In this document: one piece after another, positions 4,566-16,849 of the stretch | Layout: the number at the start of each line of letters is the position of its first letter | Position numbering within the stretch: position 1 is the first letter of the stretch | Position numbers and translations under genes: made by a program | NCBI RefSeq assembly: GCF_018350175.1 | Contig: NC_058368.1 | Location: forward strand, 45,448,001 to 45,512,000 | Source of the DNA: Felis catus | Taxonomy: Eukaryota | Reading direction: 5' to 3' | Length of the DNA stretch: 64,000 nt | The notes under the pieces: model-generated | The model's input: only the letters and a program-made list of their open reading frames with translations | What the model was told of the DNA's origin: nothing | Database searches by the model: none

Positions 4566-6583
4566 AATACAAGTTTTTAAGAAGAATGAAAATATTATCA
4601 ACTAAATGTGAAACCCATAATAACTCAGTAAAGGTCCACCCTTGCATACCTTGCAAATAGAAATATGATCAAAAGCTGGACAGGTCTACTTAGATTTCAA
4701 AGAGATTCTTAATTTGAGGAATTATTATAGATTTTTATATAAAATGGGCCACACTTGTAAGCAGTTAATATTATTTTATAACGCAGATTATTTGAAGGTT
4801 CTAAAGAAACTTAAAAAAGGTTATAGGATGTTCTTGAAACATAGTTTCAGTAAAAGTTCAGAATTTAAAGTCATAGATGAGTTTTTATCCTCTTTCTAAA
4901 AAAACAGTTAAGAACTTGCACAATAACATAATATTTCATTTATATATTTTCCTTTGTATTTTCAATTACTCTGCTTACAATTACTATTAATTTTACGTAG
5001 TTAAACAAATATAATAATGAAGTGTCACCTACTGAATAAATCAAGTTTATATGGTAATTGATTTTTCTGGACTACTAGTGCTTACTTACTTTTGACAGAG
5101 GCTGGTTTTGTTTTTTCATTTGTTTTCTCATTTTCATATTATTGATTAAGATTGCTGGAAAAATTGGAATTGTTGTGGCTATTGTTTTATGGTATTAATT
5201 AATTTGATTTATGAATGGATTACACTTTGAGTAATTACATTATGACAAAGCCACACTAATGTAAATAAATCACTTCATTTGAATACACTACTTTTGGTGG
5301 TTGTTGCATTAAGTAAACTTTTCATTCATTAAAAAATATTTGTGATTAGAACAAAATCAATATCATAATTTTTCACTCTCTCCTACACACAAGATATTGT
5401 ACCCTGTTTACTATAATCAGGATCACACTGAAGACAAGAAAAAAAAAATCCAGCAATCCACGTATCTGATCCACGCATCCCAGGTTGATGTTTAATTAAT
5501 GGCCCAATAAAAAAAGTAAACATTTCCCTTAGTATCAGGTGAACTTCACAAACTCTAGGTTATAGGAAAGACACCTTCAGAAGTTTTCTGATACATGTGT
5601 GAAATGGTAGTAAACAAGAAATCTAGGAATGACACCTTCAGGACTGAATATTTGTATAAGAAAAAAAAATTAAATGAAAACAGAGTGAGAGAAGGTTTAT
5701 TTGGCAATGTGCAGGTGTAACAGTAAAATGTCAAAATCCCAATATTTATTAAATAAGGACATACTTTTGCACTAGGAAAAAAAATGGTGATCTGGCATGA
5801 ATAAACAGCTAAAAGTTAGGAAATCCTAGGTAGTTTTCTACTTATAGTTAGGCATTTCTTTTATTCCAGATTAAATAAACTCTGCAAGTAACTCTACAAA
5901 TAAATTCTATAAACAGTTTTAGAAAAGTTCTGCACACCACTTAGAATCAATAAAGTATAACAAAGGTCTAAAAAGGGAAAATAATTAGTTCACTTTCTTT
6001 TTAACCAATAAATAGGGTTTATTTTTCAAGTATAGGAAAAATGCTGCACTACATAAAGTTTACAGACAAATTAAGAAACTACTGGGGGAAAGATGGGTGT
6101 TTAAACAACAATTTGTAGAATATACATTAATATTGTACTTTAGAATATTTTTCCAGAAAGTTTAAACTTTTCTGCATTCTAGTGTGTTATTTAAAATGAT
6201 ACGGAGTCAAATGATGTGTGTACTTTGAGAAACTTTGCTTTAACGTCTGAGGGGGGAGGATATTATCATTGAAGCACAACCTAGCTTATCCTAATACACT
6301 TCTCAACTAAGACAAATGGAAAAGTAATGATATATATATATATATATAAATGATGAAAGAGAATGACTGTCGACTTAGATTTGTAAAGCCATAGACCAGA
6401 TCTTTAAAGAATGTAAATAAAATGTTATTTTCAGAAAAAAATAATTTGACACAATTCACTATCTACAGATCTGTTCTGTAGATAGATATTAGAGGGAATT
6501 CTTGGCAACTAATTATAAAATATATACGGAAGTGCAAGGGACCATAAACAGCAAAGATATTTAATAAGAACAAAGTGGGATGT

Positions 6584-7338: not shown

Positions 7339-9096
7339 GGGGGATATAGGCTGCCTAAAGCAAGGTGTTAAAACAACCCACATGAGGAGTATGCTTATGC
7401 AGGGGGTTGGTGAGTAAGGGCAGAGTGCCTGGTAACATATTGAATGATAAATACACAGGCAGCCCAGCATATGGTATCAAAGCTCAAGTTTAGTAAGAAG
7501 GGCTACTGCAAAGGAAAGTAGCCTGGCACAGTCTATGAAAGCATGAGCAGAGTCAGACTGCCCATGCAGAGGTGGAGGCAGTATGGCCAGGTGTAGGGTA
7601 CTGGATCTCTGGGAGGGTGAAATGGACACCAGTGTAGGAAGGCAGTTTATTAGAGCCTAAGTGGAATAAAGAACATATTCTTGTAAGAGAGTGGTCTGTC
7701 ATGGGGTGGTAGAATGGAAGAAAGGTAACCCAACATGGAGTACAAGAATCCCAGAAAGTTGAGAGGAGTGTCTTTGTAGAACGATCTAGAGCAGAGTTGT
7801 AGGTAAGTGGATCCAATTACTGGGAAGTGTTGGCACATAGACATGGTAAGAGGGACAGCTCTTTGGAAGTCAGCACAGCTTAGAAAATTAGCACCCAAGC
7901 AATGTGAGGAAAGAATCCATGAAGGATGACCCAACTTCATCTCCAACTTGTGCTGGAGCCCAAGCAGAGTGAAAAGGGCATTCACCAGGGAGGGTATCAG
8001 AGTGCAGATTAAGGTGACATCCATCTGAGCATCAGAACATGCATAGTCCATGTGGACTGCTTGAAGTGGTGGCCTGTTGCGGGTTGCCAGAGCCTGAGTG
8101 AGCTGAAAAAGGTATCTTTGAGGGATGGGGAAAGAGTAGGAGCACCGAGGGTTTATCGAATAAAGATGGATTAATTGAATAATTAAATATATTAAAGATA
8201 ATGTGAGTCAGGTATTTATTAGAGAAGGAAGTTATATACATGAAAAGGGAAAAAAAGAATAAACTCTGCTGTGTTGCATTAGAATTAATCAGTGGGAGCC
8301 TGATGATGATGTACAATATGCAATCAATATAGGAATAAACACGGATGATACTGTATGTGTGTACACATGCATATGTGTGTGAATATCTACATCCCCTTGC
8401 TCTGTCCACTTAGAGTGCCCAAGAACAATGATACCCCGAAAACAATGAGCACACCTAACATTCAGACATTGGTTTCTAAATTTGATTTGGCACACTAAAA
8501 AGACACAGGGCTTCTAAGAGAAATGACTGGGTTAGGGCAAAGTATAAAACGGGCCTGGGAAATCTGCACCAGAAAATAAGAAAGTGCTCGAAGAAAGATG
8601 GATTCTTGTATAAATGACACAGAGCTAGTTTGAAGGAGCTTCTATGGTTTACAATTCCTATCAACCTCATCACTATCAAGGAAGCTCAGTTTCTGCATCT
8701 CCTGCCATTAGCCCTGCGCTACTGTGAAGAGCCATCTTGGTTATGGTGCCTATCTTCACAAAGAAGCTGTGATTGATTTTATGAATCCAATGTGCCCCAG
8801 GCCTTATTACAAAACACAGTCAAATGGTAAATTTCCCAATCTTATGTAGTACATCCATATACCCACTCTATCATATCTGATTCTCTGAGCCTTTGATTCC
8901 TTCTTCTACCACTTGCCATAGCACTCTGGTAATTTTACTTTGTGTAATTAGTCCAACTATTTGTTCATGCTTCTAATAGCCATCCTAAGGGCATGATAGT
9001 GAGAAGTCAGAACCCCCACCTTTTGCTACATAAATAACCGCTTTCATTCCGCTTCTGTAAAACTGCTTATGCGCCCCACCCTAGTCGGAAAGTCCC

Positions 9097-9168
9097 CAGC
9101 CGCTACGCAACCCGGGCCCCAAGTTGCATCAGCCGCTTCGCAACCCGGGCTCCAAGTTGCATCAGCCG
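9097..9168 (+). promoter_or_regulatory. U3 enhancer-type tandem direct repeat, 2 x 33 bp plus a 6-bp partial unit (also at 15575-15646)
   Basis: CAGCCGCTACGCAACCCGGGCCCCAAGTTGCAT / CAGCCGCTTCGCAACCCGGGCTCCAAGTTGCAT / CAGCCG; 2 mismatches between the units. Confidence 0.85.
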
Positions 9169-9255
9169 AAAGAAACTTCATTTCCCAAGCTTCCCCGGGA
9201 CGAAATTACCCACAACCCCAACCACCACCGAGCAGAGAGCCTATCGCCAGCCTGT

Positions 9256-9284
9256 ATGCAAATGTAACTCAAAATGGTATAAAA
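9256..9284 (+). promoter_or_regulatory. LTR core promoter: octamer ATGCAAAT (9256-9263) and TATA box TATAAAA (9278-9284)
   Basis: Exact motif matches at the expected U3 position; duplicated in the 3' LTR. Confidence 0.8.
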
Positions 9285-9436
9285 GACCTGTAACCCCGTT
9301 TATCGAGGCTCTCCCGCTTTCCAACACTGGGGAGCCCTGGTGCACCAGTAAAGACTCTCTGCCGACGTCGGAGTGCCGTGTGGTTCTTTGCGCCAACTCT
9401 CATTCCATAGGGCTTAGGAGCTTGGCTCCTAACATT

Positions 9437-9454
9437 TGGTGCGTTGGCCGGGAA
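9437..9454 (+). other. Primer binding site complementary to the tRNA-Gly 3' end
   Basis: TGGTGCGTTGGCCGGGAA is the reverse complement of TTCCCGGCCAACGCACCA, the 3' end of mammalian tRNA-Gly(TCC) as I recall it; lies 2 nt after the LTR CA. Confidence 0.92.
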
Positions 9455-9557
9455 TCGAGGGAAGGCAAGAGAACCCCGGCCCCGTCGGTGGATGACTCTC
9501 CGGCCCGGGCCACTGACGGACTGACTGAAGACAGACTTCTGTGCCTTTGTCTACACA

Positions 9558-9566
9558 CAGGTATTG
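9558..9566 (+). other. Candidate major splice donor CAG|GTATTG for env mRNA
   Basis: Donor-like motif between the PBS and the psi hairpins, the usual gammaretroviral position. Confidence 0.55.
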
Positions 9567-9597
9567 TGTTCTATGTTTTGTCTCTGAACTGTGAATT

Positions 9598-9686
9598 CTG
9601 AGGCCGGCCGGCCACCTCAGTAGGAGTGTTGAAGGAGGACAGACGTGTCCTGAACCTTCACACCCCAGCCCCGAGGGACGCCTCGG
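9598..9686 (+). other. Gammaretroviral dimerisation/packaging signal (psi core)
   Basis: Hairpin CTGAGG...CCTCAG overlapping the palindrome GGCCGGCCGGCC, then two GACG-tetraloop hairpins AGGACA-GACG-TGTCCT (loop 9642-9645) and CCGAGG-GACG-CCTCGG (loop 9677-9680), matching the MLV SL-C/SL-D architecture. Confidence 0.85.
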
Positions 9687-9898
9687 TGGTGTCTGTAGGG
9701 GAGAACTGACAAGTTCGTCAGACTCCCCAAATCCGTAGGCAGGCCTCCCCTGCCATCTGAATCTGAATACCTGGCCGCGGCTCCTTGGTTGTTGTCTAGT
9801 CTGTGTTGTCTGGTCTGTGTCGACATTGTAGTCATCTTTGTGTATGTGTGTGTAAGTGTGCTGGTGTGGACGCGTGGACAGGACAGGACGACACAGCC

Positions 9899-10315
9899 AT
9901 GGGACAGACATTGACTACTCCTCTAACTTTGACTCTGACTCATTTCTCGGACGTCCAAGCAAGAGCTCACAATCTTTCCCTTGAGGTTCGGAAAGGTCGA
10001 TGGCGAACTTATTGTTCATCAGAGTGGCCCACCCTATCCGTAGGGTGGCCCCGGGACGGGACTTTTGACCTCTCTATTATATTACAGGTTAAGACGAAGG
10101 TAATGGATCCCGGACCACAAGGTCATCCAGATCAAGTAGCCTATATCCTCACTTGGGAGGATCTCATTCGGAATCCTCCGGCATGGATGAAACCCTTCCT
10201 CCCTTCCTACCCCCTATCTCAATCTACCCTTCTTCCCCTGAAAACCTCAAAAGACCGAGCCTCAACCCCCTCTTACAGCCTCCACCCTATAATCCGCCCC
10301 TGGCCCCCGCCTTGA
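9899..10315 (+). CDS. gag: Truncated Gag: matrix domain with myristoylation motif plus a short frameshifted tail (138 aa)
   Basis: ATG in strong context (GCCATGG), MGQT N-terminus, GHPDQVAYI motif of gammaretroviral MA; stop at 10313-10315. Confidence 0.7.
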
Positions 10316-10360
10316 CCCCGGTGGCCCCTACTTCCCCTCCTGCCTCCAGTTCCTCCTCCC

Positions 10361-10679
10361 CCTCCTCTCCCGGTCCTGTGGCCGTGCGTCCGGGGCCCGA
10401 GCCGCGGCCCCGCCCCCGCTCCCCGCTGGCGATCCCGGCCCCCCTTTTGCCCTGTCGGGGCGGCTCGCGCCGAGGCCGAGTCGCGCGCGGGGCTGCGCCC
10501 CGGGGATGCGTGCCCCGGCGGCGGCCCGCGGGACGCCGCGGCGTCGCCCGCCGCTGCGCGTGCGGTGCCCCGTGCCGCGCGGTCCCGTGGGCCGTCGTGG
10601 GGGGTGGAGGTTGTGGATCCGGAGCGCCGTTGGTCTCGCCGTCTTGCCCCGGGCGGCGGCCGCGGCGGTCTGGCCGTGG
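10361..10679 (+). other. Captured non-viral GC-rich cassette, probably a pre-rRNA ITS2 fragment (sense orientation)
   Basis: Abrupt switch to very high GC/CpG and almost no A; 10496-10560 (CGCCCCGGGGATGCGTGCCCCGGCGGCGGCCCGCGGGACGCCGCGGCGTCGCCCGCCG...) resembles the human ITS2 block I recall (GCCGGGGTTCGCGTGTCCCCGGCGGCGACCCGCGGGACGCCGCGGTGTCGTCCGCCG). Viral CA sequence resumes at CCC CTC ACC CGC (PLTR). Confidence 0.78.
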
Positions 10680-11325
10680 CCCCCTCACCCGCCCGGACTG
10701 GGACTATGAAACGGCTCCAGGTAGGGAGAGTCTCCGAATCTATCGCCAGGCTCTGTTGGCGGGTCTCAAGGGGGCAGGGAAACGGCCCACCAATTTGGCC
10801 AAGGTAAGGACCATAATTCAAGGAAAAGAGGAAAGCCCCGCAGCCTTTATGGAACGGCTTCTAGAGGGGTTTCGGATGTATACTCCATTTAACCCCGAGG
10901 CTCCAGAACATAAGGCTACCGTGGCCATGTCGTTCATAGATCAGGCAGCATCTGATATAAAAGGAAAGCTCCAACGGCTAGATGGGATTCAAACCTATGG
11001 GTTGCAGGAACTAGTTAGGGAGGCAGAAAAGGTATATAACAAGAGGGAAACTCCAGAAGAACAGGAGGCTAGGCTAGCAAAAGAGCAGGAAGCACAGGAG
11101 GAACGAAGAGATCGAAAGAGAGATAAACATCTAACAAAAATCCTGGCAGCTGTAGTGACAGAAAATAGAACAGGAAAGTCAGGGGAAACGAAGAGGCGGC
11201 CCAAAATAGAAAAAGACCAATGTGCCTATTGCAAAGAGCGCGGGCACTGAATCAAAGACTGCCCTAAGCGCCTTAGAGACTCAAAGAAATCTACCCCCAT
11301 ACTCACCTTGGGCGAAGAGAGAGAG

Positions 11326-11385
11326 TAGGGGCGTCAGGGCTCTGGAGCCCCCCCCGAGCCCCGGCTAACTTTATCTGTAGGGGGG
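11326..11385 (+). promoter_or_regulatory. gag-pol amber readthrough signal (TAG plus downstream pseudoknot-type element)
   Basis: TAG GGGCGTCA GGGCTCTGGAGCCCCCCCCGAGCCC...: in-frame amber codon, 8-nt spacer, then a GGGCTC/GAGCCC stem as in MLV-type readthrough. Confidence 0.8.
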
Positions 11386-14300
11386 CATCCCACCACCTTC
11401 CTGGTGGACACAGGAGCTCAGCACTCGGTCCTAACCAAGGCAAACGGGCCTCTGTCCTCTCGTACCTCTTGGGTTCAAGGAGCGACAGGAAGAAAAATTC
11501 ACAAATGGACTAACTACCGTACGGTTGATTTAGGGCAAGGGACAGTGACACACTCTTTTCTGGTAGTACCCGAATGCCCATACCCCCTTTTAGGACGAGA
11601 CCTCCTAACCAAGCTTGGAGTTCAGATCCATTTCTCCAAAGCGGGGGCCCAAGTGCTAAACCGGGATGGCCAGCCTATCCAAGTCTTAACTGTGTCCTTA
11701 CAAGACGAACACAGACTTTTTGAAACCCCGGTCACCACTAACCTCCTCGAAGCCTGGCTGCAGGACTTTCCCCAGGTCTGGGCAGAAACGGGAGGGCTTG
11801 GTCGAGCCAAATGCCAGGCCCCAATCATAATTGACCTAAAGCCCACGGCAATGCCTGTATCTATCAGGCAGTATCCTATGAGCAAGGAGGCTCATATGGG
11901 CATTCAGCCACACATTACCAGATTTCTAGAGCTTGGGGTCCTGCGACCTTGCCGCTCACCTTGGAATACCCCTCTCTTACCAGTGAAAAAACCTGGTACT
12001 CGAGACTACAGGCCCGTCCAAGACTTAAGGGAAGTCAACAAAAGGACTATGGATATCCATCCTACGGTCCCCAATCCCTATAACTTGCTCAGCACCCTGA
12101 GCCCAGACCGCACCTGGTACACAGTACTGGACCTAAAAGATGCATTCTTTTGCTTACCCTTGGCCCCCCAGAGCCAGGAACTGTTTGCTTTCGAATGGAG
12201 GGACCCTGAAAGAGGAATCTCAGGCCAATTAACCTGGACCCGCTTACCCCAAGGGTTCAAAAACTCCCCCACTCTCTTTGATGAGGCTCTCCACAGGGAC
12301 CTAACTGACTTCCGGACTCAACACCCAGAAGTAACTCTACTCCAATATGTGGATGACCTTCTTCTGGCCGCCCCCACAAAGGAAGCCTGCATACGAGGTA
12401 CCAAACATCTGCTTCGGGAATTGGGAGACAAAGGATACCGGGCATCCGCCAAGAAGGCCCAGATTTGCCAAACCAAGGTAACCTACCTGGGGTACATACT
12501 GAGTGAGGGGAAAAGATGGCTCACCCCTGGGCGAATAGAAACTGTGGCTCGCATTCCGCCGCCCCAGAACCCCAGAGAGGTACGTGAATTCCTGGGAACT
12601 GCTGGGTTCTGTCGCTTATGGATACCTGGGTTCGCTGAGCTAGCCGCCCCCCTCTATGCCCTCACGAAAGAGAGTGCACCCTTCACCTGGCAGGAAAAAC
12701 ATCAGTCAGCCTTTGAGGCCCTAAAAGAGGCCCTCCTCTCCGCCCCGGCTCTCGGGTTGCCAGACACCTCCAAGCCCTTTACCCTCTTCATAGACGAGAA
12801 ACGAGGAATTGCCAAAGGAGTTCTAACCCAAAAATTAGGGCCCTGGAAGAGGCCAGTAGCATACCTGTCCAAAAAGTTGGACCCTGTGGCAGCGGGGTGG
12901 CCCCCATGTCTTCGTATCATGGCAGCCACTGCTATGCTGGTCAAGGACTCTGCCAAATTAACCCTTGGACAGCCACTAACTGTTATCACCCCGCATGCTT
13001 TAGAGGCCATAGTGCGGCAGCCACCGGACCGATGGATAACCAACGCACGCCTAACCCACTACCAGGCCCTCCTACTGGACACGGACCGCGTCCAATTTGG
13101 ACCTCCGGTTACCTTGAACCCTGCCACGTTGCTACCGGCACCGGAAGACCAACAGAGCGCACACGATTGCCGGCAAGTACTGGCTGAGACCCATGGGACA
13201 CGGGAAGACCTTAAAGATCAAGAGCTCCCAGATGCGGATCACTCTTGGTATACGGACGGGAGCAGTTACATCGACTCAGGTACCCGGAGGGCGGGAGCGG
13301 CGGTAGTAGATGGCCACCACATCATATGGGCACAATCACTACCTCCTGGCACGTCTGCACAAAAGGCCGAGCTGATAGCGCTCACCAAGGCCCTAGAACT
13401 ATCCGAAGGGAAAAAGGCTAACATATACACAGATAGCCGATATGCCTTTGCAACGGCTCATACACACGGGAGTATTTATGAAAGAAGGGGCCTACTAACC
13501 TCAGAAGGCAAAGAAATTAAAAACAAAGCTGAAATAATTGCATTATTAAAGGCCCTTTTTCTTCCCCGAAAAGTAGCCATAATTCATTGCCCCGGGCATC
13601 AGAAAGGACAAGACCCAATTGCAACAGGAAATAGACAGGCAGACCAAGTAGCCAGGCAAGTCGCTGTGGCAGAAACGTTGACTTTGACCACAAAACTTGA
13701 AGAAACCAATCTTACGACCAACAAATATGCTTACACCCCAGAAGACCAGGAAGAGGCAAAGGCCATAGGGGCTATACTGAATCAGGACACTAAAGACTGG
13801 GAAAAAGAAGGAAAGATAGTCCTTCCCCGAAAGGAAGCCCTGGCAATGATCCAACAAATGCACGCCTGGACACATTTAAGTAATCAGAAGCTGAAGTCAC
13901 TGATTGAAAAAACTGACTTCTTAATCCCTAAGGCAGGCACCCTCATAGAACAGGTGACCTCCGCCTGTAAGGTCTGTCAACAGGTAAACGCTGGGGCTAC
14001 CCGAGTGCCAGAAGGAAAACGGACTCGTGGTAACCGCCCAGGAGTCTATTGGGAAATAGACTTTACTGAAGTAAAGCCTCACTATGCGGGGTATAAGTAC
14101 TTATTAGTGTTTGTAGACACCTTTTCAGGATGGGTAGAAGCCTACCCCACCCGACAAGAAACGGCACACGTGGTAGCCAAGAAGATTTTAGAAGAAATCT
14201 TCCCCAGATTTGGACTTCCCAAGGTAATCAGGTCAGATAACGGGCCGGCCTTCGTTTCCCAGGTAAGTCAGGGGCTCGCCAGGACACTGGGGATTAATTG

Positions 14301-14899
14301 GAAATTACACTGTGCATATAGGCCCCAGAGCTCAGGACAGGTAGAAAGAATGAATAGAACAATAACAGAGACCCTTACTAAATTGACCTTAGAGACTGGC
14401 TTAAAAGATTGGAGACGCCTCCTATCTCTGGCCTTGTTAAGAGCCAGAAATACACCCAACCGTTTCGGGCTCACCCCATATGAAATCCTTTATGGGGGAC
14501 CCCCCCCTTTTGTCAACCTTGCTCAATTCCTTCTCCCCCTCCGATCCTAAGACTGATTTACAAGCCCGACTAAAAGGGCTGCAAGCGGTGCAGGCCCAAA
14601 TCTGGACACCCCTGGCCGAACTGTATCGGCCAGGACATCCACAAACTAGCCACCCATTTCAGGTAGGAGACTCCGTGTACGTCCGGCGGCACCGCTCTCA
14701 AGGATTGGAGCCTCGTTGGAAGGGACCTTACATCGTCCTGCTGACCACGCCCACCGCCATAAAGGTTGACGGGATCGCCGCCTGGATTCACGCATCGCAC
14801 GCCAAGGCAGCCCCAAAAACCCCTGGACCAGAAACTCCCAAAACCTGGAAGCTCCGCCGTTCGGAGAACCCTCTTAAGATAAGACTCTCCCGTGTCTGA
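11329..14899 (+). pseudogene. pol: pol (protease-RT-RNase H-integrase), open to 14550 with a +1 frameshift at 14508-14511; IN C-terminal domain continues in the next frame to 14899
   Basis: [38 protein letters not shown]; RNase[42 protein letters not shown]; second frame LSTLLNSF...WKGPYIVLLTTPTAIKVDGIAAWIHASH...IRLSRV*. Confidence 0.95.
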
Positions 14900-14933
14900 C
14901 TGCTAATCCACCTTGTCCCTGTACTAACCCAAA

Positions 14934-15326
14934 ATGAAACTCCCAACAGGAATGGTCATTTTATGTAGCCTAATAATAGTTCGGGCAGGGTTTGACGACC
15001 CCCGCAAGGCTATCGCATTAGTACAAAAACAACATGGTAAACCCTGTGAATGCAGCGGAGGGCAGGTATCTGAGGCCCCACCGAACTCCATCCAACAGGT
15101 AATTTGCCCAGGCAAGACGGCCTACTTAATGACCAACCAAAAATGGAAATGCAGAGTCACTCCAAAAAATCTCACCCCTAGCGGGGGAGAACTCCAGAAC
15201 TGCCCCTGTAACACTTTCCAGGACTCGATGCACAGTTCTTGTTATACTGAATACCGGCAATGCAGGGCTTTCTTCCGTACCTCCTACCTCTCCTGGGACC
15301 CCTACTCACCCTCCTACTCATACTAA
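14934..15326 (+). CDS. env: Truncated soluble Env product, 130 aa (signal peptide + ~94 aa SU N-terminus + 18 frameshift residues)
   Basis: Open ORF from the native ATG (AAAATGA); hydrophobic signal MVILCSLIIVRA; 8 Cys in the mature part; no TM helix in frame. Confidence 0.6.
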   Translation: MKLPTGMVILCSLIIVRAGFDDPRKAIALVQKQHGKPCECSGGQVSEAPPNSIQQVICPGKTAYLMTNQKWKCRVTPKNLTPSGGELQNCPCNTFQDSMHSSCYTEYRQCRAFFRTSYLSWDPYSPSYSY

Positions 15327-15451
15327 CCATTGGGCCATGCGTTTTCGGTCGCCTCATGGCCTTCATTAATGATAGACTTAATGTTGTACATGCCATGGTG
15401 CTGGCTCAGCAATACCAAGCACTCAAAGCTGAGGAAGAAGCTCAGGATTGA
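14934..15451 (+). pseudogene. env: env (RD-114 type) with a large internal out-of-frame deletion at 15261-15268
   Basis: SU N-terminus up to YTEYRQCRA is joined directly to the TM anchor/cytoplasmic tail (QGFLPYLLPLLGPLL...AEEEAQD) in another frame; no furin site, fusion peptide, ISD or CX6CC present. Confidence 0.95.
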
Positions 15452-15462
15452 GCTTCCGGGAC

Positions 15463-15477
15463 AAAAGCAGGGGGGAA
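15463..15477 (+). other. Polypurine tract
   Basis: AAAAGCAGGGGGGAA immediately before the TG of the 3' LTR. Confidence 0.9.
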
Positions 15478-15912
15478 TGAGAAGTCAGAACCCCCACCTT
15501 TTGCTACATAAATAACCGCTTTCATTCCGCTTCTGTAAAACTGCTTATGCGCCCCACCCTAGTCGGAAAGTCCCCAGCCGCTACGCAACCCGGGCCCCAA
15601 GTTGCATCAGCCGCTTCGCAACCCGGGCTCCAAGTTGCATCAGCCGAAAGAAACTTCATTTCCCAAGCTTCCCCGGGACGAAATTACCCACAACCCCAAC
15701 CACCACCGAGCAGAGAGCCTATCGCCAGCCTGTATGCAAATGTAACTCAAAATGGTATAAAAGACCTGTAACCCCGTTTATCGAGGCTCTCCCGCTTTCC
15801 AACACTGGGGAGCCCTGGTGCACCAGTAAAGACTCTCTGCCGACGTCGGAGTGCCGTGTGGTTCTTTGCGCCAACTCTCATTCCATAGGGCTTAGGAGCT
15901 TGGCTCCTAACA
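15478..15912 (+). repeat. 3' LTR (435 bp)
   Basis: Directly follows the polypurine tract; no differences from the 5' LTR found on manual comparison; the same 74-aa shadow ORF appears in both copies. Confidence 0.97.
15825..15830 (+). terminator. Candidate non-canonical poly(A) signal AGTAAA in R of the 3' LTR (copy at 9347-9352)
   Basis: No AATAAA downstream of the TATA box in the LTR; AGTAAA lies ~65 nt after TATA and is followed by a GT-rich stretch (GTGCCGTGTGGTTCTTTG). Confidence 0.65.
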
Positions 15913-16849
15913 TTAGCATCATCTCTAAGTGTCTTTGCTGGGGTGTTAAACTGCATATTGATAAACTCTCCTTTAGTCAACTTTGTTTTCCACACATCTC
16001 TTGATTCAGCACCCTCACAGTCCAGTCTCACATGTATTTTTCTGGCACCTATGAATGCATGTTGGCTCTGGGAATACTCTGGCTAAGTTATATTCAACTT
16101 AACCTTATTTATTGGCTTAAATATTGAGAATAGTTTCTGAGAATAGGAAGCATTTCTTATCTTGAAAAGAAGAGGGATTTTCTTTGTCTTCCAGAAAGAG
16201 GATGCACTAGCCTTTAGCAGCAAAATGTATGGCATACTTGCAGAGAAATTAGATTCTCAGTAAACTCTGGAAATTTAAGATTTTCAAGTGAATCAACCAA
16301 GATGATCCCAATCCATGCCTTGTTCTCCCTCCCACTCCCCAATCAGGCCCCTGACTTTAGTGAGGCAGATGCCAGTACCAAGAATGTAAGCTTCTATGGA
16401 AGTCTGATTTTCCTTTGGTTGAGCTCCAGGACTAGTCTTCAGCTCTTTCTGCTGAGCGCAGGAGAGGAGAGTCCTTTATAGCTTTCAAGGGAGCCCTCTG
16501 CCTTTCTCCCTCCAGTTGTCTTCCTCCAAAGCATTTATTACAACATTTACCACAGCATTTATTGCAACAACTATCTGATTCCATTTTCTCTTTAAATAAG
16601 ATTTCTGCCCAATTCATTCAATTGCATGATATGTTGCCTCAGCCAGTGCATTTTCTTCTATCATTATGTGAGCTCAGTTCAGTGAAAATTCGAATTGTAT
16701 TGTGCCTACATAGTGAACTATGGACATAACTATGAATTATGACATTAGGACTCTGGGGACAGAGAACATGACACCTACAGCCAGTGATGGTGCCCTCATT
16801 GCCAACTGAATGACAATGATCTAGCTCCAAAATTCTAGTTTATTTAGGG

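Follow-up and report, generated by a model that had tools for sequence, protein, structure and literature searches.

Organization and affiliation of the provirus

A defective provirus of 6913 nt was found at positions 9000–15912 of the analyzed window, a stretch of 64,000 nt of the Felis catus genome (contig NC_058368.1) to which all positions given below refer unless stated otherwise. It has paired LTRs and the LTR–gag–pol–env order of an RD-114-related provirus, and its Pfam domains follow one another as Gag_MA, Gag_p30, RVP, RVT_1, RNase_H, rve, and TLV_coat (Table 1). The two LTRs are identical (0 differences in 435). The intact gag, pol, and env frames of a replication-competent RD-114 were not found in this element: gag has lost the N-terminal part of CA, is frameshifted, and carries an in-frame stop, while most of env is deleted (about 1.17 kb relative to the RD114 reference, with the N-terminal part alone left). 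In the CA–NC region of gag, the open reading frame 10093–11250 is closed by an in-frame TGA at 11250.

Table 1. Features of the insert-bearing provirus in the window.
Feature	Positions	Strand	Description or basis
5' LTR	9000–9434	+	435 nt, TG...CA
gag: MA and remaining p12	9899–10357	+	Pfam Gag_MA, E 2.3e-50
5' junction microhomology CCCCCTCC	10358–10365	+	Common to viral p12 and ITS2 (L005 1501–1508); alignment with insert-less relatives and ITS2
ITS2 piece B	10366–10560	+	ITS2 nt 758–952 (L005 1509–1703), sense; own-genome searches
ITS2 piece A	10561–10680	+	ITS2 nt 631–750 (L005 1382–1501); own-genome searches
3' junction microhomology CCCCTC	10681–10686	+	Common to ITS2 (L005 1502–1507) and viral CA
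gag: C-terminal part of CA, then NC	10687–11328	+	Pfam Gag_p30, profile positions 81–201 of 201
pro-pol open frame: protease, RT, RNase H, integrase	11329–14550	+	1073 aa; ORF list, Pfam
env remnant, RD-114 type N-terminus	14928–15326	+	Pfam TLV_coat
3' LTR	15478–15912	+	Pair of the 5' LTR

An 8406-nt IMG/VR record (L058) served as the RD114 reference; the envelope glycoprotein YP_001497149.1 is recorded on a contig of 8406 nt. The window provirus had 97.2–97.5% nucleotide identity with this reference over positions 9035–10299 and 10681–15268. Its env remnant was 96% identical to the reference over 120 aa, and 96% identical to the representative of the 90% protein cluster containing "envelope glycoprotein [RD114 retrovirus]" (YP_001497149.1). 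On these nucleotide and env values, the element is an RD-114-related provirus of the domestic cat, defective and of the RDRS type, combining an ERV-DC-like gag-pol with an RD-114/BaEV-type env. RD-114 itself is described in the accessible text of PMC5923473 as an ERV-DC gag-pol fused to a BaEV-type env. Identity with FERV1 was considered and dropped, FERV1 being ERV-DC-like according to the accessible text of PMC4199695 and the window provirus having an RD-114-type env and LTR.

The non-viral block in gag

The G+C content reached 0.80–0.86 in 200-nt windows between positions 10300 and 10699 and was about 0.5 on either side. The strictly non-viral letters, positions 10366–10680, comprise 315 nt with 82.9% G+C, 9 A, and 59 CpG, and are bordered by two short motifs that the virus and the insert have in common, CCCCCTCC and CCCCTC. 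The first-pass annotation, made from the sequence of the window, had placed an extremely GC- and CpG-rich, A-poor non-viral block at 10361–10679, which was accurate in composition and correct to within 5 nt at each end. It had also proposed that the block replaces viral sequence, with the end of p12 and the N-terminal part of CA missing; consistently, the Gag_p30 match begins at profile position 81, and 438 nt are gone relative to RD114. The replaced stretch corresponds to positions 1514–1951 of the RD114 reference, i.e., the end of p12 together with roughly the first 100 residues of CA, and the motifs YWPFS, DLYNWK, and QPTWDDCQQLL are present there both in the reference and in insert-less relatives from the same genome. 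The lengths of 438 and 315 nt differ by 123 nt, so that the exchange is in frame. Alignment with insert-less relatives and with ITS2 located the junctions in CCCCCTCC and CCCCTC.

Signs of LINE-mediated retrocopying (a 3' poly(A) or a 7–20-bp host target duplication) were not found in the block: there are 9 A in 315 nt, no A-run is visible, and the flanks are viral gag. The reported lack of a poly(A) tail thus held, and so did that of a target duplication; the annotation had, however, passed over a 7-nt direct repeat, CCCCCTC, on both sides of the insert, which is a junction microhomology and not a target duplication.

Five of the six reading frames have no stop across positions 10340–10700. 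Because this is expected at 83% G+C, the open frame across the block is uninformative, and a coding role for the insert was rejected, gag being broken in every copy. The chimeric frame appears in databases as "translation initiation factor IF-2-like [Felis catus]" (XP_044908082.1 and XP_044909062.1, 278 aa, with 99% identity over the ITS2-encoded stretch); UniRef entry A0ABI8ABT8 (337 aa) represents the chimeric frame as well.

Origin of the insert and its permuted order

A search of the cat genome with positions 10340–10700 returned four rDNA places on contig C37, each matching the query in two pieces of reversed order. Rfam placed 5.8S rRNA upstream of these matches and the start of LSU rRNA downstream; the donor is therefore the genome's own rDNA ITS2, located between 5.8S and 28S, as the annotation had proposed from a supposed resemblance to mammalian ITS2. 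In the rDNA sequence L005, ITS2 occupies positions 752–2503 (1752 nt, 80% G+C). The insert differs from it by 5 mismatches in 315 nt: one in piece B, a C>T change at a CpG, and four in piece A, three of which are common to the four insert-bearing proviruses described below and one of which is private. Altogether, four of the five mismatches are shared by all four proviruses, and three of those four are C>T changes at CpG.

The insert is circularly permuted: ITS2 nt 758–952 is followed by nt 631–750, while piece A lies directly upstream of piece B in rDNA. The back-join from nt 952 to nt 631 (L005 1703 to 1382) lies at positions 10560/10561 and has no shared letters. In ITS2, the two junctions with viral sequence coincide at one site, L005 1501–1508, the place of CCCCCTCC; this motif occurs seven times in ITS2 and only once inside L005 1382–1703. 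The two pieces and the shared CCCCCTC together represent a 322-nt ITS2 unit (nt 631–952, L005 1382–1703) exactly once. A reverse transcriptase jump onto and back off a linear precursor, which had been the first explanation offered, does not fit an insert that is permuted and has both viral junctions at one ITS2 site. A back-join combined with a unit-length donor is the pattern of a cDNA of circular RNA.

The natural order of A before B was present in contig X16 (word depth 829), in the RNA-library contig X6, and in the bulk of 2034 ITS2 reads of RNA-seq run X24. This bears on the possibility that some rDNA units once had nt 631–952 tandemly doubled and served as a linear donor, in which case two ordinary jumps at CCCCCTC, that is, two switches at one motif, would suffice. 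Spacer duplications are common in rDNA evolution, and the assembled rDNA units are only four in number and partly truncated. However, no such duplication was found in the present ITS2, in X16, in X6, or in the bulk of the X24 reads; the present ITS2 has no long-period tandem repeat or internal duplication and contains only short-period, low-complexity arrays. Moreover, the older ERV described below would require a second, different duplication (about nt 789–952) with the same end. We consider a doubled linear donor quite unlikely.

Four insert-bearing proviruses

Four assembled places in the genome matched the whole 361-nt query at about 100%, all of them proviruses that have LTRs of their own and lie in unrelated flanking sequence (Table 2). 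Besides the window copy, these are located at C17:17.8 Mb and at C2:28.8 and 66.8 Mb. The insert junctions are identical in all four. The first-pass annotation mentioned neither the three further proviruses nor the permutation of the insert.

Table 2. Insert-bearing proviruses of the cat genome.
Copy	Target duplication	LTR pair differences	Segment missing
Window copy	ATAG/TTAG (3/4 bases)	0 of 435	91 nt of p12 present in the other three
L039	CTTA/CTTA	3 of 436	133 nt of CA present in the window copy
L040	TAAT/TAAT	0 of 435	Same 133 nt of CA as L039
L041	GCCC/GCCC	0 of 435	Same 133 nt of CA as L039

Perfect 4-bp target duplications thus surround three of the four copies. The 91-nt deletion private to the window copy lies near positions 10262/10263 and shifts the frame. 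Read from the ATG, gag meets its first stop after 138 aa in the window copy and after 344, 346, and 47 aa in the other three; three kinds of env deletion were distinguished among the four. In a tree of 31 rows built on 1.8 kb of NC–PR–RT, which is rough since its bootstrap had not settled, the four copies and the RD114 reference formed one group (support 91/99), within which L039 paired with the reference (100/100). This placement of L039 fits recombination among co-replicating genomes.

The identical insert, the individual flanks, the target duplications, the near-identical LTR pairs, and the differing secondary deletions point to a single capture and subsequent spread in trans to four loci. 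Because four of the insert differences are shared and only one is private, and because the 91-nt and 133-nt losses are complementary, the common ancestor already contained the insert together with both of the segments lost later, and its descendants integrated at least four times. A genome devoid of the N-terminal part of CA cannot make its own particles, which suggests that this spread used the proteins of related helper viruses.

RNA reads across the junctions

In the raw reads of the oligo-dT RNA-seq run X24, the back-join (a step back of 322, from L005 1703 to 1382) was present in 24 reads with 15 different start places. Another 60 X24 reads continued beyond L005 1507 with a consensus of 30 letters that equals positions 10687–10716 of the window. 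Four letters, at L005 1435, 1472, 1492, and 1520, are diagnostic for the provirus as against rDNA; those at the first three positions were found in about 15% of X24 reads, namely in 58 of 383, 70 of 433, and 71 of 477 at L005 1435, 1472, and 1492, respectively. Both the back-join and the junction on the capsid side are thus spanned by RNA reads of an independent run, which shows the chimera to be real and to be transcribed. An assembly chimera, against which the annotation had asked for junction-spanning reads, is also contradicted by the four assembled loci with identical junctions, and a chance GC-rich look-alike, such as a CpG island, by the 5 mismatches in 315 nt to ITS2; either explanation has a negligible likelihood.

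The back-join reads of X24 need no source besides the provirus transcript, because they are fewer than the reads entering gag (24 against 60) and about 15% of reads carry the provirus letters. In run X21, the back-join was absent among 195 ITS2-aligned reads. No pile-up of molecule starts or ends was seen on L005 1200–1900 in four runs of oligo-dT or single-cell libraries, and there was no step at 1382, 1540, or 1703. The X24 library was oligo-dT primed and fragmented and is therefore blind to circles and to cyclic-phosphate ends. As the libraries are of the oligo-dT or single-cell kind, this survey of RNA ends neither supports nor weakens the existence of a discrete ITS2 RNA.

A second ITS2 capture in an older ERV

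When the genome was searched with the whole ITS2, 22 matches at 15 places were obtained: four rDNA units, six ERV places, and five low-complexity places (74–87%). The other weighty matches, apart from the four proviruses above, were located at C1:83.46 Mb and C18:91.92 Mb (L044 and L045), both on the opposite (minus) strand within an older gammaretrovirus-like ERV. The same kind of search with ITS1 (1107 nt) found no copy outside rDNA; for the 5' ETS, three weak copies outside rDNA were found, and the two that were examined had no tblastx match to the provirus and no retroviral coding similarity.

The two copies of the older ERV show about 90% identity to each other, and in one of them the paired LTRs are 87.7% identical. 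In their pol, a stretch of about 1553 nt has given way to antisense ITS2 of about 148 nt, while relatives without the insert, e.g., at C46:27.46 Mb, keep this pol stretch. In the reading direction of the ERV, the insert consists of the reverse complement of L005 1579 to 1538/41 (95–97% identity to the present ITS2) and then of L005 1703 to 1585 (84–87%). Both viral junctions again fall at one ITS2 site, L005 ~1576–1590, with GGGA and GGGG.CCGGGA shared. This insert is likewise permuted and unit-length, covering L005 ~1541–1703, and thus has the pattern of back-join and unit-length donor seen in the young insert. Its internal join starts at L005 1701–1703 (2-nt ambiguity), i.e., at ITS2 nt 950–952, and the back-join of the young insert is at 1703. 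The older insert differs from the young one in its internal join, orientation, viral gene, and ERV family, and is therefore a separate, independent capture.

By our estimate, a second join would originate within 2 nt of the first with a chance of roughly 5 in 1752 if breakpoints are uniform. This argues against a series of at least three unrelated template switches along ordinary long pre-rRNA, in which chance and local microhomology would account for the positions in common. Reverse transcriptase is able to make repeated switches, and short matches are frequent between p12 and ITS2, each of them C-rich, with CCCCTC occurring 11 times in ITS2; yet such switches would have to leave exactly at the entry site twice, in separate events, and to resume at the same point (1701–1703 and 1703). 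Chance switching is accordingly very unlikely. The topology and join origin common to both captures point instead to a particular molecule derived from ITS2, either a circle or a species with defined ends. To our knowledge, no such molecule has been described so far.

Proposed mechanism of capture

We think it probable that an RD-114-related virus took the 322-nt ITS2 piece by copy-choice of reverse transcriptase on a discrete ITS2 RNA, circular or end-defined, and subsequently spread. This reading builds on the observed donor identity, permutation, junctions, four separate integrations, and transcription, and on the second permuted ITS2 capture with the same back-join origin. Copy-choice and RNase H activity are known properties of retroviral reverse transcriptases.

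In a single event, ITS2 nt 631–952 would have entered gag in exchange for 438 nt. The minus-strand cDNA would depart from gag at CCCCTC and anneal to CCCCCTC(C) within a co-packaged ITS2 RNA; reverse transcriptase would copy this RNA down to nt 631, resume at nt 952, and proceed to its own entry point, where the template would be exhausted and the cDNA would return to gag at the upstream CCCCCTCC. The template may have been a closed circle with nt 952 joined to nt 631. Alternatively, it may have been a single linear fragment with its 3' end at nt 952, copied in two legs: once the first leg was finished, the uncopied 3' part would still be available, and the second would halt where RNase H had removed the template. 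Either template would force the exit at the entry point, which would explain the exact unit length in both events. The older ERV can be read in a similar manner, as the product of reverse transcriptase on a sense ITS2 RNA with a 5' limit at about nt 789 and resumption at nt 952. The capsid-defective product would then have been packaged and integrated through the proteins of related helper viruses, giving at least four proviruses.

According to the accessible text of PMC4997597 and PMC4931115, particles of MLV and HIV-1 contain nascent or precursor non-coding RNAs, and those of HIV-1 also contain rDNA spacer transcripts. Nuclear precursor RNAs in virions are the donor pool proposed here. The accessible text of these papers reports pre-tRNAs, pre-snRNAs, and intergenic spacer transcripts and does not name ITS2; moreover, the cat case is a genomic fossil and not virion RNA.

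Several points count against this reading. The short homologies at both junctions (8 nt, CCCCCTCC, and 6 nt, CCCCTC) are those expected of copy-choice, but microhomology junctions arise in DNA repair and replication too; that the template was an RNA inside the particle, circular or end-defined, is what we infer. The main weakness is the antisense piece in the older ERV, which demands plus-strand template switching or a route at the DNA level. The RNA reads on ITS2, from an oligo-dT library, show no step at the three positions mentioned above. The fold of L005 1360–1725 has an energy below that of all 100 shuffles (z −3.2), but it leaves 1382 and 1703 apart.

A rival reading is an origin at the DNA level, in which a small extrachromosomal rDNA circle (nt 631–952), or rDNA reached by template switching during replication, was joined by microhomology to unintegrated viral DNA or to a germline provirus, with loss of 438 nt of gag and subsequent transcription and spread. 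A circle opened at a single position yields a permuted copy of unit length whose two junctions map to the same donor site, either orientation is possible, which fits the antisense piece of the older ERV, and sizes of 322 and ~165 bp with high G+C resemble those of microDNA. MicroDNA circles are closed on a short direct repeat, of which one copy is kept at the join. In ITS2, CTT immediately precedes nt 631 and immediately follows nt 952, yet the join ...GCGCG|TGCGG... keeps no CTT. The join origin common, within 2 nt, to two events millions of years apart would also be unexplained, and all ITS2-derived pieces found outside rDNA in this genome sit in gammaretrovirus-like ERVs, which pass through reverse transcription. 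An origin at the DNA level is in our opinion unlikely, and copy-choice on an ITS2 RNA is preferred.

A further step, which we put forward only tentatively, is that felid cells make a discrete small ITS2 RNA, circular or with its 3' end at nt 952, possibly cut by LAS1L and ligated, that was packaged and, on two or more occasions separated by millions of years, reverse-transcribed. The inserts of the two ERVs would in that case be fossil maps of ITS2 processing ends (nt 631, ~789, and 952). RNA ends with a 2',3'-cyclic phosphate and a 5'-OH are substrates of the RNA ligase RtcB. The cut of ITS2 by LAS1L leaves a 2',3'-cyclic phosphate and a 5'-OH, as stated in the accessible text of PMC12292926, and the accessible part of PMC13201660 (Table 1) gives human ITS2 site 4 as C7559^GCGGTGT^C7566. 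In the cat, GCGGTG starts at L005 1383, 1 nt past the 5' boundary of the captured fragment, and this 6-mer occurs three times in the cat ITS2. The resemblance to site 4 thus consists of GCGGTG near the captured 5' boundary and of cleavage ends that could be ligated; the boundary, however, lies 36% along the cat ITS2, whereas the human site lies at ~69%. We treat this likeness as a lead and not as evidence.

Comparison with known systems

As in retroviral transduction, host sequence lies inside a provirus with viral sequence on both sides, and viral sequence has been replaced. Colinearity with a host transcript (read-through or co-packaged mRNA), as expected of transduction, is lacking here, since the insert is a permuted copy of a Pol I spacer. 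Oncogene capture and the short host insertions of HIV-1 (references 84, 88, and 89 in PMC4997597), instances of transduction by non-homologous copy-choice, share with the cat provirus a host sequence between viral flanks, short junction homologies, the loss of coding sequence, and a helper-dependent defective genome. In contrast to oncogene capture, the donor is not an mRNA, being a non-coding Pol I spacer; the copy is permuted and unit-length, there is no selectable gene, the insert is fixed in the germline at four loci, and a second ERV lineage took the same spacer region. Transduction of host sequence by retroviruses is known, and the permuted, unit-length capture of a spacer is new.

Another virus comparable in this respect is influenza, in whose haemagglutinin a piece of 28S rRNA was reportedly inserted. 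There, too, a viral polymerase copied ribosomal RNA sequence into a viral gene; influenza is, however, an RNA virus, and its insert came from mature rRNA, with no permutation and no germline record.

The RDRS and ERV-DC of the domestic cat are the nearest relatives in the literature, resembling the four copies in their 97.2–97.5% identity to RD114, RD-114-type env N-terminus, 435-nt LTRs, and young integrations. The four copies differ from those described in the accessible text of PMC4313119 and PMC5923473 by large env deletions and by a gag without the N-terminal part of CA. Neither literature searches nor the accessible text of PMC4313119, PMC5923473, PMC4199695, and PMC11240321 revealed an insert derived from rRNA or ITS2 in RD-114, RDRS, ERV-DC, or other cat ERVs, or a permuted spacer capture.

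The cat insert is a rare fossil of a retrovirus copying nucleolar spacer sequence and then spreading. It is direct evidence, at the genome level, of a retrovirus taking up nucleolar pre-rRNA spacer sequence and of a crippled product that was still able to multiply in the germline. In practical terms, NCBI labels the chimeric frame as an IF-2-like translation initiation factor, and about 15% of the reads over part of ITS2 in the oligo-dT run X24 stem from the provirus. The four loci are also young markers of RD-114-related activity in cats.

Second ITS2 capture and insert-bearing proviruses

In an older gammaretrovirus-like ERV lineage, a piece of ITS2 (about nt 789–952) that is circularly permuted and in antisense orientation stands in place of about 1.55 kb of pol. 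The back-join of this piece originates at the same ITS2 position as that of the insert in the window. The lineage comprised two copies (L044 and L045), which were about 90% alike. Two short 5′ ETS-like pieces were also located outside rDNA in the cat genome assembly (G000); no recognisable retroviral sequence surrounded them.

ITS2 and 5′ ETS-like pieces in the cat genome assembly
Feature	Location	Context	Identity
Antisense permuted ITS2 piece, copy 1	L044 (G000:C1:83451501-83461500), about 4848-5002	Older gammaretrovirus-like ERV	
Antisense permuted ITS2 piece, copy 2	L045 (G000:C18:91915401-91925400), about 4848-5008	Older gammaretrovirus-like ERV	
Short 5′ ETS-like piece	G000:C13:14709419-14709557	Outside rDNA	82–86% (range for C13 and C42 pieces)
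Short 5′ ETS-like piece	G000:C42:13867461-13867583	Outside rDNA	82–86% (range for C13 and C42 pieces)

Among the insert-bearing proviruses, L039 (G000:C17:17814801-17824800) grouped in the NC-PR-RT region with the RD114 reference genome (100/100), not with the other three copies; over 4.08 kb it had 51 mismatches to the window, the other two insert-bearing copies having 6–7. This grouping and the mismatch counts suggest that RD-114-related genomes recombined after the capture. The 4-bp flanks of the window provirus, ATAG (8996-8999) and TTAG (15913-15916), differ by one mismatch, whereas perfect 4-bp duplications flanked all three other insert-bearing proviruses. The chimeric Gag-ITS2 frame (10093-11250 in the window, and its copies on contig C2) was named by NCBI “translation initiation factor IF-2-like [Felis catus]” (XP_044908082.1, XP_044909062.1), presumably because the translation of the spacer is Arg/Pro/Gly-rich.

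rDNA units and ITS2 in RNA reads

Irregularly spaced along contig C37 were four full ETS-ITS2 units, one of them inverted, and two partial copies of the 5′ ETS. The units end about 390 nt into 28S (from about position 2897 of L005, the rDNA sequence taken from this contig) and are followed by AT-rich non-rDNA sequence; LSU rRNA was not found in the 10 kb beyond the break (L060, G000:C37:13098341-13108340). These breaks may represent assembly collapse or truncated units adjoining the nucleolus organiser.

In the oligo-dT-primed RNA run X24, reads ending within ITS2, at L005 1263 (27 reads) and near 1500 (13 reads), carried untemplated A-tails; such reads may derive from spacer decay intermediates that had been oligoadenylated and were therefore caught by the oligo-dT priming. 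ITS2 variants were present in 25–65% of reads at L005 1478, 1485, 1487, and 1551 in X24 and at 1522 and 1560 in run X21. The variant sets of the two runs, which come from two individuals, were not alike, and the variants look like intra- or inter-individual rDNA polymorphism with no relation to the provirus.
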